Source of the DNA: Escherichia coli
Lineage (GTDB): Bacteria > Pseudomonadota > Gammaproteobacteria > Enterobacterales > Enterobacteriaceae
Reading direction: 5' to 3' (one strand)
DNA length: 64,000 nt
Assembly (NCBI RefSeq): GCF_003334405.1
Contig: NZ_QOWM01000012.1
Translations under genes and position numbers: made by a program
Notes under the pieces: generated by a model
What the model was told of the DNA's origin: nothing
Seen by the model: only the letters and a program-made list of their open reading frames with translations
The model's database searches: none
Shown here: positions 1,889 through 27,442 of the stretch, piece by piece
How the letters are laid out: every line of letters starts with the position of its first letter
How positions within the stretch are numbered: the stretch's first letter is position 1

Positions 1889-1904
1889 GGCAAAAGGCGT
1901 GCCA
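1889..1904 (-). promoter_or_regulatory. sigma54 (-24/-12) promoter upstream of lafB
   Basis: Minus strand reads TGGCACG-cctt-TTGCC (plus-strand ttggcaaaaggcgtgccaa), matching the TGGCACG-N4-TTGCW consensus, about 30 bp upstream of the lafB ATG. Confidence 0.6.
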
Positions 1905-2147: not shown

Positions 2148-3062
2148 TTACTGCAGCAGGCTGGAAACCATGCTGGACATGCTGTTGGACTGTTTCAGCA
2201 TGGTGATGCCGGTCTGCATCAGCACCTGCTGTTTGGTCATATTGGACGCTTCCGTAGCGTAGTCGGTATCCATGATGTTACCGATAGCAACTTCGGTGTT
2301 GTCCTGCATACTGGTCAGGTTATTAGCCGTGTCGTTCAGACGGTTGATAGACGCACCCAGCTTGGACTGGATCTGCGAAACATCATCCATCGCGGTAGAA
2401 ATGCTGGTGATCATCTGGTTAGCCGAGCCAGACGCAGTCAGTTCAGTACCGCCAGAAACGCCTGCGGTGCCTGTGGTGTCTGCCTGATCCGCACTGAAGG
2501 AGTTGCTGATAGCAGAAAGGTCAGTCACCAGCGTGTTCAGTTGGCTAGAGATGTTCACGGTCATGGTGTCGGAAGATTCCGCGCCCACCTGGAAAGTTAC
2601 CGCGCTCTGGAACAGGCCGTCAGTACCGGTGTTGCTGGTGCCGGAAACACCGAACAGGTTGGTGCCGCCGTAGGTGGTGTTTTGCAGCATGTCAGACATC
2701 TGCTGGCCCAGTTCGTCGTATTCGTCCTGCATCGCCTGCAGATCGTCGTCGCTGTAGGTGCCGTTCGCTGCCTGAGTTGACAGGTCTTTCATACGACCCA
2801 GCACGTCAGACATTTCGTCGAACATGCTGTCGGCGGTTTGCAGCATCGCGGTGGCATCATTGATGTTGCTCAGCGCAACATCCATACCGCTGGACTGTGC
2901 TGTCAGACGGTTAGCAATTTGTTTGCCTGCGGCGTCATCGGCAGAAGAGTTAATCCGGTTACCTGTCGCCAGGCGTTCCATAGATGTAGACAGAGAAGAG
3001 CTGCTTTTGCTGATTGCATTAACGGCGGCCATTGAGGCGTTATTGGTGTTAATAGATAACAT
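2148..3062 (-). CDS. lafA: Lateral-type flagellin (short flagellin without large D2/D3 domains)
   Basis: Starts MLSINTNNASMAAVN... at ATG 3062 behind an AAGGAG RBS; conserved flagellin N and C termini (..QVLMQTGITMLKQSNSMSSMVSSLLQ); the track ORF start at 3128 is an upstream in-frame extension. Confidence 0.9.
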   Translation of the reverse strand: MLSINTNNASMAAVNAISKSSSSLSTSMERLATGNRINSSADDAAGKQIANRLTAQSSGMDVALSNINDATAMLQTADSMFDEMSDVLGRMKDLSTQAANGTYSDDDLQAMQDEYDELGQQMSDMLQNTTYGGTNLFGVSGTSNTGTDGLFQSAVTFQVGAESSDTMTVNISSQLNTLVTDLSAISNSFSADQADTTGTAGVSGGTELTASGSANQMITSISTAMDDVSQIQSKLGASINRLNDTANNLTSMQDNTEVAIGNIMDTDYATEASNMTKQQVLMQTGITMLKQSNSMSSMVSSLLQ

Positions 3063-3107
3063 GATACTGCTCCTTGGGATTAATCGTTTTCGTTTCGATA
3101 CCCTGTA

Positions 3108-3133
3108 AAAACGACACCTCGGGAGCAAACTTA
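3108..3133 (-). promoter_or_regulatory. Candidate sigma28-like (class III) promoter for lafA
   Basis: Minus strand TAAGTTT-N11-GTCGTTTT versus the FliA consensus TAAAGTTT-N11-GCCGATAA: good -35, partial -10 (4/8). Confidence 0.3.
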
Positions 3134-3496
3134 AAACCGCCGTTAAAAAAATTTCACTGCGGTTTATCTGATGCCACTTTTAGCTAAAAAAAGCAGAGTT
3201 TAAATTCAGATAAAAAGATTATTAGCAATATCTGCCACATGGCCAGGTATCAAAATATGTCTTTATCAAACGCTTGATATAGTTAAGATTACCATCAATT
3301 AACGCGTTTTCTTCTCAATGTACTGATGCCAAAATTTACATTGCGTTGCAAATAGTACACATTTGGCTATTGTACCTGTCCTGTCATTTCGTTACATTTC
3401 CACGCCATATAGTGATTAAGAATAATCCTATTACCATAAAATATTAATTATCACGCAGAAAAATCATCTTCTCAGGGACGTATAAGACTGTGCTTT

Positions 3497-4390
3497 ATGC
3501 AAAGCACTATCAGGAAACATTTATCCCTTGCTAAGGTAAACTCAACTATGAGTATTATTATCAACAACTGGCGGATGGACCCGTCGCTTAATGCCTTAAT
3601 ACATTGCGAAACGGGTGAAACACGTCGTCTCGGCGAATACCATTTTATTTTGCTGGAAACATTAGCAAAAAATGCCGATGTGGTTTTATCGCGATCTTAT
3701 TTATGTGCCGAAGTATGGAAGAACCGCATTGTCGGCGGTAACAGCCTGCCGACGGCGATACATGCATTACGCGTTGCTATCGACGATGATGGCAAACAAC
3801 AGAACATTATTAAAACCATCCCGAAAAAAGGTTACCTGTGCAATAAAGAGTATGTGTCTTTGCCGGAGTCATCGCCTGCGGAAGCGCTGATTATTACCAA
3901 CCAGGTACAGGAAACTGTGCCAGGAGAGATATCTTCGACAACCCTGCCTGTGCCTGTTAGAAAAAAACATAAAGGACTGATGGGGTTAGCGTTGACCGCG
4001 GCTGTTATATTTATTGGCTCGACCGTGGGGTATTCACACTTGAAAAGTACACCTGACGCCCCGCAACTGGTAAAAGAGTCAATTAACAGCCCAAGAATAA
4101 AAATATTTCACCTTAGTTCTGGAAAAGAAAATAATTCCGCACCGTTACTGTCACAAACCCTCGCACCAGGAAAAGACAAACTCGATAATTTATTGTCAGC
4201 GCATAATATGACAATGACAACCTATTATAAATATGTTCGTAACCGACTGGAGAGTGATATTGTTCTGCGCAACCAGTGCAACGGTAGCTGGCAATTAACC
4301 TTTAATGTGGATGAGTGGCAGAATAGCGATATTAATAGCGCGATGTATCAGAATTTAGAGAAGTTGTTAAATACTGTGCAGAAGTGCTGA
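3497..4390 (+). CDS. lafZ: ToxR/CadC-like membrane-anchored transcriptional regulator (OmpR-type winged helix, one TM segment, periplasmic domain)
   Basis: N-terminal region resembles an OmpR/PhoB-type DNA-binding domain (..TIPKKGY); hydrophobic segment GLMGLALTAAVIFIGSTVGY; divergent from lafA; the true start may be the internal Met at 3548. Confidence 0.55.
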   Translation: MQSTIRKHLSLAKVNSTMSIIINNWRMDPSLNALIHCETGETRRLGEYHFILLETLAKNADVVLSRSYLCAEVWKNRIVGGNSLPTAIHALRVAIDDDGKQQNIIKTIPKKGYLCNKEYVSLPESSPAEALIITNQVQETVPGEISSTTLPVPVRKKHKGLMGLALTAAVIFIGSTVGYSHLKSTPDAPQLVKESINSPRIKIFHLSSGKENNSAPLLSQTLAPGKDKLDNLLSAHNMTMTTYYKYVRNRLESDIVLRNQCNGSWQLTFNVDEWQNSDINSAMYQNLEKLLNTVQKC

Positions 4391-4448
4391 TGAGTGCCAA
4401 TATATGCCGGATGCGACGCTAAACGCGTCTTATCCGGCCTACCGATAA

Positions 4449-5426
4449 TTATCCCAATAAACTCCTCACCGTCTGGCTGGAAATTCGCGCCTGACCATTC
4501 ACCGCCTGCAATAACACCTGATAGTTATGATTCGCGCTATCCAACACGCCGCCGAGATTTTCCGACGCCTGCACGGCGTTTTCCGTTTGCGGGAAGCGGG
4601 ACATGCCGTCGATCAACTGGCGGGCTTTTTCCTGCTGCACCGCCATTTGCGCGCGCTGCTGATTAATGTTTTCTAACATCTGGGAAATCCCTGCCCCGCC
4701 CTGTTGCAGGCTTTGCGCTAAACGCTCGGCCTGCGACGGTTCGGCAAAGGTTTTTAGCGGCATAAACGCCGACTTATCACCATCGGTGCGCACGCTTAAG
4801 GTGCTTTCAATGTTGGGCCACTGCTTTTCGGTGGTGGAGAAGCTGATGCCGTCCGCTTGCTGATGCAGTTGCACACCCACGCGGCGCAGGGCGTTGGTCA
4901 GCCGCGTCTGATACTGCGCGGCGCTGTCATCCTCAGACAGCATCACCGCCGAAAGCTGAGTCTGCCGCCCGTCAGAGACGCTGAACATGCGCGTTCCCGG
5001 CGTGGGGTTGTGTACGAGATTCGCCAGATCCGGCGAGTGAAAAGTCACCCGCGCCTCGCCCTGCAACACTGGCTGCAACTGGCGGTCTACCGCACCGCCG
5101 GAAAGCGCGGTGCGTTTGTCCAGCATCTGCATCAGCGCCGTACTCTGCGCCTGCCCGCCCTTACGCTGGCTGTGACGATAATCGAGCAACTGCTGCTCCA
5201 GTTGCCCGAGGTAGTGATCCGCCTGCTGCAACGTGGTGAGCTGGTCGTTAAGCTGCACGCTGTAACGCTGCGGGCGAGTGGTAATCAGCGGCGAGGCCGG
5301 ATATTCACTCGCCGTCGCCGGGAGTTTTTGCCGCACCGCCTGAGTGGGCGCAACGGTTGACGACGATACCGCAGCGCTATGCGCGCTGCCGGTGGCGAGT
5401 GACGAAGAAGTAAGTCCGACCTGCAT
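4449..5426 (-). CDS. lafW: Flag-2 protein of uncertain function (LafW-like, possible hook-associated/axial protein)
   Basis: 325-aa ORF directly downstream of lfgL; Gln/Ser-rich with a flagellar axial-protein-like C terminus; naming by position in the cluster. Confidence 0.45.
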   Translation of the reverse strand: MQVGLTSSSLATGSAHSAAVSSSTVAPTQAVRQKLPATASEYPASPLITTRPQRYSVQLNDQLTTLQQADHYLGQLEQQLLDYRHSQRKGGQAQSTALMQMLDKRTALSGGAVDRQLQPVLQGEARVTFHSPDLANLVHNPTPGTRMFSVSDGRQTQLSAVMLSEDDSAAQYQTRLTNALRRVGVQLHQQADGISFSTTEKQWPNIESTLSVRTDGDKSAFMPLKTFAEPSQAERLAQSLQQGGAGISQMLENINQQRAQMAVQQEKARQLIDGMSRFPQTENAVQASENLGGVLDSANHNYQVLLQAVNGQARISSQTVRSLLG

Positions 5427-7763: not shown

Positions 7764-7834
7764 GTTGGATCCTTACCGGTAAATCGTGCCGGTTAAAAGC
7801 GGCGTGAAGATGGGGATTCTTAAATTCCGTAAAC

Positions 7835-8060
<226 letters not shown>

Positions 8061-8066
8061 GGAGCC

Positions 8067-14779: not shown

Positions 14780-14816
14780 TTCCTGCGTCACTCCTGCTTC
14801 AATCCGCATACGCTAA

Positions 14817-14832
14817 GCAATCGCCGTGCCAT
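14817..14832 (-). promoter_or_regulatory. sigma54 (-24/-12) promoter of the lfgB rod/hook operon
   Basis: Minus strand reads TGGCACG-gcga-TTGCT (plus-strand agcaatcgccgtgcca), an exact match to TGGCACG-N4-TTGCW, about 35 bp upstream of the lfgB ATG and followed by an AGGAGT RBS. Confidence 0.7.
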
Positions 14833-26069: not shown

Positions 26070-27056
26070 TCAGGAGAAAACTTCGATACCTTGCTTGCGC
26101 ATGGAGGCCAGTCGATAGCGCAGTGCGCGCGGGGTAATGCCTAACAGGTCGGCGATTTTGCTGCGGTTGCCCTGATATTTACGCATCAGGTCAGCGATAT
26201 ATTGATACTGGGCGCTTCGTCCGTGCTGGCCCAAATCGCTGGTTTCGGCAATGTGGACGGCGGGCTGAACAGGCCATTGCAGTTCGCTGCGGTCGGCAAC
26301 GTCCGTTTCCGGCAGGCCTAAGGCATCCGGGTAAATCACGCCGTCGCGATTTAAAATCATTCCCCGCTGAATGGCGTTCTCCAGCTGGCGCACGTTGCCG
26401 GGCCAGCGGTAATTGAGCAGCGCCCGGCGGGTAGATTCTGAAAGGGTGATATTTTTCACCAGCACCGTGGAGTACTTTTTTATAAATGACTCTGCCAGCG
26501 GAATAATATCGTTCAGACGTTCACGCAGTGGCGGCATGGTAATAGGAATAACCGCCAGACGATAATAGAGATCTTCACGAAAACGCCCGGCAGCCACTTC
26601 CTGTTCAAGGTTTTTATTGGTGCAGGCAATCAGGCGAAAATTGAGTTTAATTTGTCGGTTGCTGCCTAATCGCTCAACCTGTTGCTCCTGCAATACGCGT
26701 AATATTTTGGCCTGTAGCGCCAGCGGCATATCGCCAATTTCATCGAGTAATAAGGTGCCGTTATTCGCTAGTTCCATTTTTCCTGGCACACTGGCAATTG
26801 CGCCGGTAAATGCGCCTTTGTCGTAGCCAAATAATGTAGCTTCCAGCATGTTTTCCGGGATCGCTGCACAGTTCACGCCGATATAGGGCGCGTTATCATT
26901 TTCACCAAAGGCTACGGTGTGAATATATTTCGCCACGCATTCTTTGCCCGCGCCGGTTTCGCCCTGAATGAGCACCGGCACGTTAAATGCGGCGACACGC
27001 TTTGCCAGAGTAAAAGCGTTAATGCTGGAAGCGGCAGTTGCAATAAGTTCAGACAT
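26070..27056 (-). CDS. lafK: sigma54-dependent transcriptional activator without a receiver domain (AAA+ domain plus C-terminal HTH)
   Basis: Walker A GETGAGKE, GAFTGA motif (YDKGAFTGA), Walker B LLLDEIGDM, C-terminal HTH; the protein begins directly at the AAA+ domain (328 aa). Confidence 0.85.
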   Translation of the reverse strand: MSELIATAASSINAFTLAKRVAAFNVPVLIQGETGAGKECVAKYIHTVAFGENDNAPYIGVNCAAIPENMLEATLFGYDKGAFTGAIASVPGKMELANNGTLLLDEIGDMPLALQAKILRVLQEQQVERLGSNRQIKLNFRLIACTNKNLEQEVAAGRFREDLYYRLAVIPITMPPLRERLNDIIPLAESFIKKYSTVLVKNITLSESTRRALLNYRWPGNVRQLENAIQRGMILNRDGVIYPDALGLPETDVADRSELQWPVQPAVHIAETSDLGQHGRSAQYQYIADLMRKYQGNRSKIADLLGITPRALRYRLASMRKQGIEVFS

Positions 27057-27177
27057 AGGGTGAACGATATCAGTAGCGACAGAAAACAGGATATTGTGAA
27101 GCGTATCACCGGCGGGATTAACAAGTTCGAATTAAACGATAATAAAAATATTATTTTATGGTAAACAATGAGTTATC

Positions 27178-27275
<98 letters not shown>

Positions 27276-27442
27276 GTGTTATGACGATGCCTGATATCTA
27301 GCCCTTTAATAATTTAATTATTTTTTCATCCTATTAATAATTTGCCCCTTTCACTCCCCCTCTATTTAATACCTCACCTTGTGTCACTGCCGGATTTGCG
27401 TGCACAAAATCGCCCATACCATTACAGCAGAGAAAGTAAGCC

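Follow-up and report, generated by a model that had tools for sequence, protein, structure and literature searches.

LafZ of the Escherichia coli Flag-2 locus as a probable ToxR/VtrA-class membrane-tethered regulator that has lost its overlapping partner gene

Introduction

The bile-salt receptor VtrA/VtrC of Vibrio parahaemolyticus (PMC4933562; PMC9214523) consists of a regulator, VtrA, which joins an OmpR-type winged helix, one transmembrane (TM) helix and a small C-terminal periplasmic alpha/beta domain, and a second protein, VtrC, the gene of which overlaps the 3' end of the regulator gene. Here, we analyze lafZ, a gene for a regulator of the same layout, contained in an open reading frame (ORF) at 3497..4390 on the plus strand of a 64-kb stretch of Escherichia coli DNA (contig NZ_QOWM01000012.1; hereafter, the window), which is the Flag-2 (lateral flagella) locus of this bacterium. 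In relatives of LafZ, the 3' end of the regulator gene is overlapped by an ORF for a TM-anchored partner of ~155 amino acids (aa), as it is by VtrC. However, VtrA/VtrC and the LafZ family share no sequence similarity in the periplasmic domain or in the partner, E. coli LafZ comes without a partner gene, and the context of VtrA/VtrC is type III secretion system (T3SS) 2, whereas that of LafZ is flagellar.

Several other systems are instructive. ToxR, of the Vibrio pair ToxR/ToxS, has the solved DNA-binding domain nearest to that of LafZ by sequence (8b4b, E 3.7e-8), and each of the two regulators carries two periplasmic cysteines, one of them at or next to the C terminus; in ToxR, a disulfide constrains the periplasmic domain (PMC7265457; PMC8359183). 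In contrast to the partner genes of LafZ relatives, which overlap the regulator gene and have no Pfam ToxS match, the ToxS gene does not overlap toxR (PMC9214523), and ToxR regulates globally, whereas LafZ belongs to a single locus. CadC, the pH/lysine sensor of E. coli, shares with LafZ the ToxR-like bitopic topology and a matching DNA-binding domain (5ju7, E 2.3e-6), but comprises 512 aa, has a ~320-aa two-subdomain sensor, against a periplasmic domain of ~115 aa in LafZ, and works with LysP. The two-gene logic of the LafZ family recurs in TcpP/TcpH, PsaE/PsaF, YqeI/YqeJ, GrvA/FidL and MarT/FidL, in which the second gene often starts in an overlap around the C-terminal Cys codon (PMC9214523); these cassettes control adhesins, toxins or T3SS, and most of their regulators lack the C-terminal helix held by LafZ, VtrA and ToxR (PMC9214523). 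Finally, LafK, the sigma-54 activator that acts as master regulator of the Vibrio lateral flagella, resembles LafZ in lying inside the lateral locus and being absent from Flag-1, but is a cytoplasmic AAA+ enhancer-binding protein, with no sensory domain in its E. coli form, whereas LafZ has an extracytoplasmic domain.

The gene lafZ was named in 2005 by Ren et al. as that of a "putative transmembrane regulator" (as relayed by citing papers; PMC6993521). Flag-2 cluster 3 is lafWZABCDEFSTU, LafZ has no Flag-1 counterpart, and LafZ, LafK and LafW serve as markers for Flag-2 loci (PMC6993521; PMC7526173). The identity and broad functional class of lafZ are therefore already in the literature, and the functional suggestion of a first-pass annotation of the window, a membrane-tethered environmental input into lateral flagellar expression, is the annotation that has stood since 2005. 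The present work is a refinement and not a discovery; it adds where LafZ belongs structurally, how the promoters are arranged, and a partner gene that E. coli has lost.

Domain architecture of LafZ

We consider LafZ to be the Flag-2 representative of the bitopic, membrane-tethered transcription factors of the ToxR/VtrA class; to this placement, taken together with the role in Flag-2 control proposed below, we assign a probability of about 0.6. By gene organization, the LafZ family belongs to the co-component class of VtrA/VtrC, although E. coli lafZ itself lacks one defining feature of that class, the adjacent partner gene. The sole Pfam domain is Trans_reg_C (residues 42-114 of the 297-aa ORF, i-E 4e-13, 49.7 bits), and the first and second solved-structure matches by sequence were the DNA-binding domains of Vibrio cholerae ToxR and of CadC, respectively. 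This domain is nearly invariant from Escherichia to Citrobacter. The winged helix lies at the extreme N terminus, and no Response_reg match, that is, no receiver (REC) domain, was found in LafZ; because a receiver domain is lacking, LafZ is, by its predicted domain content, not an OmpR/PhoB response regulator. Many LafZ proteins are named "CadC family" by NCBI. Against the CadC equivalog model NF007540, LafZ scores 33.2 bits at a cut-off of 400, with residues 52-121 alone aligned, and, with its small sensor, is not a CadC equivalog.

Only one segment of the protein is strongly hydrophobic (Kyte-Doolittle 19-mer maximum of 1.85 at ORF residues 160-178, GLMGLALTAAVIFIGSTVG). The residues just before it, RKKHK, agree with a cytoplasmic N terminus under the positive-inside rule, and an N-in, C-out topology is predicted. 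The full-length AF2 model was built from a shallow alignment, with a pLDDT below 50 in the linker and of 30-70 in the DNA-binding domain, for which the model was not used.

The ~115 residues that follow the TM helix are predicted to form a compact alpha/beta domain (model pLDDT 91.9). In a Foldseek search with the model of this domain, VtrA chains took ranks 2, 5 and 6, and fold comparison gave values of about 7 for HPF/YfiA proteins, which have the same topology, 6.2 for the V. vulnificus ToxR periplasmic domain (6uue_A) and 5.2 for the CadC periplasmic domain (3ly7_A). A PDB profile search with the periplasmic domain (alignment A5) returned no ToxR or VtrA match and no sequence similarity to any solved structure. 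The model thus relates the periplasmic domain of LafZ to VtrA/ToxR at the level of fold and architecture only, the fold being closest to VtrA, whereas the sequence of the DNA-binding domain is closest to ToxR. The order of secondary-structure elements and the C-terminal Cys of LafZ are features given for both VtrA and ToxR, and a C-terminal Cys is typical of ToxR/VtrA-like proteins in general (PMC9214523). In a 51-sequence alignment, the sole invariant periplasmic residues are Cys244 and Cys280, which may form an intradomain disulfide. A profile of the periplasmic domain alone, searched against 1.84 billion representative proteins, retrieved only 56 clusters; among the full-length matches, nearly all measure ~300 aa and end with this domain, and an N-terminal winged helix was present in all aligned matches.

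These results bear out what the first-pass annotation had read from the letters, namely an OmpR-type winged helix at the N terminus, a single TM helix and a periplasmic domain of ~100 aa, and they support its label "ToxR-like", by sequence for the DNA-binding domain and by fold for the periplasmic domain. Its term "one-component", however, is misleading for the family: elsewhere, the regulator belongs to a co-component cassette of two genes, and only the E. coli version departs from this by having no partner.

An overlapping partner gene and its loss in the E. coli clade

Relatives of LafZ carry an ORF of ~155 aa that begins within the final 20-29 nt of the regulator gene, in a different frame, and encodes a protein of which the N terminus is hydrophobic and the periplasmic part carries the conserved (F/Y)YDL...SPDDNRF. 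A systematic scan identified this overlapping partner in 72 of the 75 family loci outside the Escherichia/Pseudocitrobacter clade (for example, L003:6929-7402, L016:5929-6408, L034:5854-6318 and L091:6001-6447, with about 70 other loci). The partner-bearing Flag-2 loci include those of Citrobacter, Enterobacter, Kluyvera, Buttiauxella, Yersinia, Rahnella, Budvicia, Pragia and Leminorella. There are two subtypes of the partner, one starting with MKW... and a Citrobacter type starting with MKC... and containing two cysteines. Where any source names the protein, it is only as "hypothetical protein"; a Pfam scan of the partners found no domain and no ToxS match, and a PDB profile search (alignment A6) found no match to any solved structure, ToxS and VtrC included. 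The Citrobacter gene caller missed the overlapping start, so that the hydrophobic N terminus of the partner was lost from the annotation, and the resulting 132-aa ORF after lafZ was first read as soluble and unrelated, a reading that we rejected because the true overlapping start supplies a hydrophobic N terminus. The ~155-aa overlapping gene is probably the VtrC/ToxS-like partner of LafZ.

One such pair is very probably in the literature already. Kinch et al. list the Yersinia pseudotuberculosis cassette BZ17_3283/3282, the function of which is not given, with a periplasmic domain at residues 235-348 and an overlapping "lipocalin" partner (PMC9214523); flagella are not mentioned in the main text of that paper. 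The LafZ ortholog in the Y. pseudotuberculosis Flag-2 locus has 348 aa and a 148-aa overlapping partner (L091), and, from these lengths, the Flag-2 pair very probably corresponds to BZ17_3283/3282.

In the same systematic scan, neither the window nor any of the 12 loci of the Escherichia/Pseudocitrobacter clade had the partner gene, and a search of the partner family turned up no Escherichia member. The widely conserved LNEM..C tail of LafZ also encodes the start codon of the partner; in the E. coli clade, this tail has drifted to LNTVQKC. The lafZ-lafW gap of the clade measures 58 bp and contains a repetitive extragenic palindromic (REP) element, followed by the end of lafW. The REP is kept in the Escherichia and Pseudocitrobacter loci, except for L004, where a toxin-antitoxin pair (HTH_3 + Gp49) was found, and an Rfam scan of positions 2900-4600 yielded only sub-threshold matches to the REP-derived naRNA4 (4396-4439). 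A 90-aa ORF at 4394..4666 (plus strand) was considered as the partner and rejected because it is antisense to lafW and starts inside the REP element. In a published Flag-2 survey, the lafW-lafZ gap is the region "VR2", described as horizontally acquired cargo averaging one hypothetical protein. That the Escherichia/Pseudocitrobacter lineage lost the partner gene is an addition to what was known of lafZ.

Promoter layout around lafZ

The GC content is 35% in the spacer between lafA and lafZ, 43% in lafZ and 53% in the window as a whole; in 15 orthologous loci, the spacer is 435-781 bp long, with 33-40% GC. The divergent region was thus rightly described as AT-rich in the first-pass annotation, but the length given there, 370 bp, falls short of the 484 bp measured (433 bp if lafZ started at ATG 3497). 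An alignment of 11 spacer sequences from six named genera revealed a sigma-28-like lafA promoter, which lies 47-71 bp ahead of the lafA start codon and is unique within the Flag-2 part of the window; its conservation extends from Escherichia to Enterobacter sp. It is a variant of the FliA consensus and was recovered by the alignment only, as a search with the canonical FliA motif (TAAAGTTT-N11-GCCGATAA), in which up to 3 mismatches were allowed, gave no match close to either lafA or lafZ. The region is therefore divergent, as had been noted, but is not simply a control region shared with lafA, and, because lafA has its own conserved sigma-28-like promoter, direct control of lafA and lafB by LafZ is neither needed nor indicated. 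On the lafZ side, the longest conserved block is composed of two parts (3335-3353, then TATTGT at 3368-3373) and could be a tandem winged helix-turn-helix site with 11-bp spacing (TTTACA/TTGCAA) and/or a sigma-70 promoter (TTGCAA-16-TATTGT).

Elsewhere in the window, a perfect sigma-54 consensus, TGGCACGGCGATTGCT, was identified upstream of lfgB at 14816-14831 (minus strand), within the 81 bp between lfgA and lfgB, and a site with one mismatch, TGGCACGCCTTTTGCC, at 1889-1904 (minus strand), 32 nt upstream of lafB. In the same motif search of the window, neither sigma-54 nor sigma-28-like motifs were found upstream of lafZ or lafK. In the lateral flagella of Vibrio and Aeromonas, a cascade leads from LafK/sigma-54 to LafS/sigma-28 (PMC4481668). 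The predicted promoters of the window fit this cascade and leave lafZ and lafK without a cascade promoter. LafK of the window (26070..27056, minus strand) has 328 aa and consists of a sigma-54 AAA+ domain and HTH_8 only, with no receiver or other sensory domain. In the 386 bp upstream of lafK (27057-27442), there are two REP elements, as well as AT-rich blocks that are also conserved in Citrobacter (GCAAATTATTAATA; AATAATATTTTTATTATCGTTTAATTC).

Together with its upstream region, lafZ forms a low-GC island (window positions 3000-4400, 32-46% GC versus 52-63% in the neighboring genes). Such islands are typical of H-NS-bound regulatory regions, and the upstream region is probably H-NS-silenced.

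Place of LafZ in the Flag-2 hierarchy

LafZ is the only Flag-2 regulator with an extracytoplasmic domain and most likely provides an envelope-sensing input to Flag-2 expression, its link to lateral flagella being one of synteny only. We propose that LafZ would bind DNA while anchored in the inner membrane, with no phosphorelay involved, and that the state of its periplasmic domain would set the stability and oligomerization of the cytoplasmic winged helices and, through these, promoter occupancy. This state would probably depend on an intradomain disulfide and, in the relatives, probably also on a complex with the co-translated, lipocalin-like partner, which would form a ligand pocket. LafZ would then act at the top of the Flag-2 hierarchy by passing on a signal from the envelope or the environment, the candidate sites of action being its own AT-rich upstream region and/or lafK, followed by the LafK/sigma-54 promoters (lfgB and lafB) and finally the LafS/sigma-28 promoter (lafA). 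Action upstream of the cascade, on lafK and/or on lafZ itself, and not directly on lafA, is favored because lafZ and lafK are the genes without a cascade promoter; this step is inferred, as no motif common to the lafZ and lafK upstream regions was found. LafZ, with the sole extracytoplasmic domain, is the obvious handle on the question of what triggers Flag-2, and its placement next to VtrA and ToxR guides experimenters in choosing their approach.

Several observations weigh against this assignment. Full-text literature searches found no experimental study of LafZ. None of the conserved elements TTTACATTNNGTTGCAAAT, GTTACATTT and AGATTATTAGCAATA, nor the tandem TTKMMA-N5-TTKMMA, recurs elsewhere in the Flag-2 locus, so that no LafZ binding motif could be defined from searches of this locus; between the lafK upstream region and the blocks upstream of lafZ, any resemblance is at most a weak one (ATTATTA/GCAAAT), and footprinting of the lafK upstream regions of E. 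coli and three Citrobacter species revealed conserved AT-rich blocks but no convincing motif in common with lafZ. The family is not obligatorily flagellar, because about 21 of its 80 members, mainly from Erwinia and Pantoea, are not located beside flagellar genes. Furthermore, Flag-2 was not expressed under laboratory conditions in E. coli EC958 (PMC4637896), which leaves the activity of LafZ in E. coli in doubt. In addition, VtrA needs VtrC and ToxR is destabilized without ToxS (PMC4933562; PMC7265457); by analogy, LafZ might be inactive without a partner.

The last two points lead to the most serious competing explanation, namely that E. coli LafZ is a dead relic, unstable or locked off after the loss of an obligatory VtrC-like partner, and as such one cause of Flag-2 silence. 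The genomic picture agrees with this, given that the partner is missing from 12 of 12 loci of the clade, with the REP in its place, that the partner family has no Escherichia member and that the LNEM...C tail encoding the partner start has drifted; LafA was not detected in EC958 (PMC4637896), and VtrA/VtrC is described as an obligate heterodimer (10.1101/2022.09.02.506320). Yet the ratios of nonsynonymous to synonymous substitution rates (dN/dS) within the partner-less clade tell otherwise: the DNA-binding domain is at about 0.05 and the periplasmic domain, with dS up to about 1.7, at 0.07-0.18, and only the linker and the TM helix evolve nearly neutrally. Moreover, both cysteines are kept, the full-length 280-aa form is dominant (2295 member sequences in the main cluster), and, of the 1276 E. 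coli genomes with the region, 1262 span 80% or more of its length. Purifying selection and the dominance of the full-length form thus argue against simple decay of E. coli LafZ, although they do not by themselves demonstrate activity, and we regard the relic as unlikely. Because the periplasmic domain is kept under purifying selection despite the loss of the partner, LafZ of Escherichia and Pseudocitrobacter probably still signals, alone or with a different partner. A further, tentative idea is that of a "widowed" co-component sensor, in which the loss of the VtrC-like partner turned E. coli LafZ into a stand-alone envelope sensor or left the lateral-flagella regulon locked off. In the latter case, forced dimerization of LafZ or supply of a Citrobacter-type partner would switch on E. 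coli Flag-2, and partner loss offers a concrete hypothesis for the silence of the locus.

The remaining explanations concern the target. If LafZ used the divergent region to control the neighboring filament genes, lafA and lafB, directly, this would agree with the divergence from lafA, conserved in most loci, and with the length and AT-richness of the spacer and its several conserved blocks. However, lafA has a conserved sigma-28-type promoter close to its ATG (3110-3134) and lafB has the sigma-54-like site at 1889-1904, both of which fit the cascade from LafK to LafS (PMC4481668), and the remaining conserved blocks are closer to lafZ, at a distance of 150-330 bp from lafA, which makes such control improbable. 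Even less probable is that LafZ hitch-hikes in the Flag-2 variable region and regulates non-flagellar genes for envelope, adhesion or virulence functions. The LafZ-like partner cassettes outside flagellar loci (about 21 of 80, in Erwinia, Pantoea, Kosakonia and Pluralibacter), the low-GC island of lafZ and its upstream region, the known insertion hotspot VR2 at the lafZ-lafW junction and the control of adhesins or T3SS by other co-component systems (PMC9214523) could all be accommodated by this possibility; against it stand the conserved lafA-lafW position of the gene across Enterobacteriaceae, Yersiniaceae and Budviciaceae, the use of lafZ as a marker conserved in most Flag-2 loci (PMC6993521) and, as a single anecdote, a Rouxiella strain with Flag-2 only and no lafZ that is non-motile (PMC6993521).

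The LafZ-like loci with no Flag-2 genes within 5 kb belong to Erwinia, Pantoea, Winslowiella, Kosakonia, Pluralibacter, Silvania, Cedecea colo and Limnobaculum (L029, L034, L035, L038-L040, L042, L044, L046, L048, L050, L051, L061, L064, L068, L070, L071, L074, L075, L080 and L082). All of them but L071 carry the overlapping partner. These loci are either orphans that remained after the loss of Flag-2 or paralogs with other targets.

Locus, start codon and feature coordinates

The RefSeq neighbors of lafZ, each encoded on the opposite strand, are fliS and fliD (lafC and lafB) with lafA to one side and a hypothetical protein (lafW) with flgL and flgK to the other; in both the window and the RefSeq annotation, lafZ diverges from lafA and lies between it and lafW. 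Many E. coli chromosomes match bases 3000-4500 at 100% identity, and the region is present in 1276 of 5426 complete E. coli genomes (about a quarter). The lafA/lafW position is held by 59 of the 80 LafZ-family loci. The E. coli proteins in this position match at 95-100%, and, because of these matches at the same position and the description in PMC6993521, LafZ of the window probably corresponds to CAH19147.1, the LafZ of E. coli 042.

The start of the gene had been set at 3497 in the first-pass annotation, but is most likely ATG 3548, the RefSeq start, from which the 280-aa protein begins with MSIIINNW (Table 1). All aligned orthologs (Escherichia, Pseudocitrobacter, Citrobacter and metagenome sequences) start with MSI(I/V)(I/V)N, the ToxR alignment opens at residue 3 of the 280-aa protein, and positions 3497-3547 show no coding-type conservation outside Escherichia, with gaps in Pseudocitrobacter and Phytobacter. 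Some pipelines annotate a longer form (300-aa entries), and, within Escherichia, the in-frame ATG 3497 is a less probable alternative.

Table 1. Features of lafZ and its surroundings in the window (strand: +, plus; -, minus;., none assigned; A1, A3 and A5 are alignments)
Feature	Coordinates	Strand	Basis
AT-rich lafA-lafZ divergent spacer, 484 bp	3064..3547	.	35% GC; lafA start at 3063
Sigma-28-like lafA promoter, TTAAGTTT-N11-GTCGTT	3110..3134	-	both elements (nearly) invariant in 11 sequences; sigma assignment inferred
Conserved block AGATTATTAGCAATA, candidate regulator binding site	3216..3230	+	conserved from Escherichia to Citrobacter
Conserved block TTTACATTGCGTTGCAAAT + TATTGT	3335..3373	+	longest conserved run in the distal spacer; unique in the Flag-2 part of the window
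Conserved GTTACATTT (3391-3399), then putative sigma-70-like promoter TTTCCA-18-AATAAT	3391..3426	+	alignment
In-frame upstream extension, 17 codons, probably 5' untranslated region	3497..3547	+	no coding conservation outside Escherichia
Candidate Shine-Dalgarno AAGGT, 10 nt before ATG 3548	3533..3537	+	read from sequence; AGG kept across genera
lafZ coding sequence, 280 aa + stop	3548..4390	+	RefSeq WP_000022372.1; ortholog starts; ToxR alignment
Cytoplasmic OmpR/ToxR-type winged-helix DNA-binding domain, residues 3-100	3554..3847	+	Pfam, 8b4b match, conservation
Variable juxtamembrane linker, residues 101-142, ends RKKHK	3848..3973	+	length and sequence vary in alignments A1 and A3
Single TM helix, residues 143-163	3974..4036	+	Kyte-Doolittle 1.85; N-side basic residues; AF2 helix 143-164
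Periplasmic VtrA/ToxR-fold domain (predicted), residues 164-280, topology beta2-alpha-beta3-alpha	4037..4387	+	
Cys244 codon, first of the invariant periplasmic pair	4277..4279	+	51/51 (A3), 49/49 sequences (A5)
Cys280 codon, C-terminal residue, second invariant Cys	4385..4387	+	invariant in A3 and A5
REP element, GCCGGATGCGACGC...GCGTCTTATCCGGCCTAC, fills the lafZ-lafW gap at the position of the partner in relatives	4406..4442	.	sequence; sub-threshold Rfam

One E. coli protein of different length, P0002 (297 aa), is longer because a stretch of 17 residues is repeated in tandem (KESINSPRIKIFHLSSG x2) where the periplasmic domain begins, and not because of an N-terminal extension. In a paper on ST131, "lafWZ" is given as a putative toxin/antitoxin absent from EC958 (PMC4637896), which appears to confuse lafW and lafZ with the toxin-antitoxin pair located between them in strain 042 (compare PMC3032704). 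The window is otherwise identical around lafZ to strain 300709, but its lfgJ-lfgK spacer (7764-8066), a region with REP-like repeats, is 118 bp shorter.

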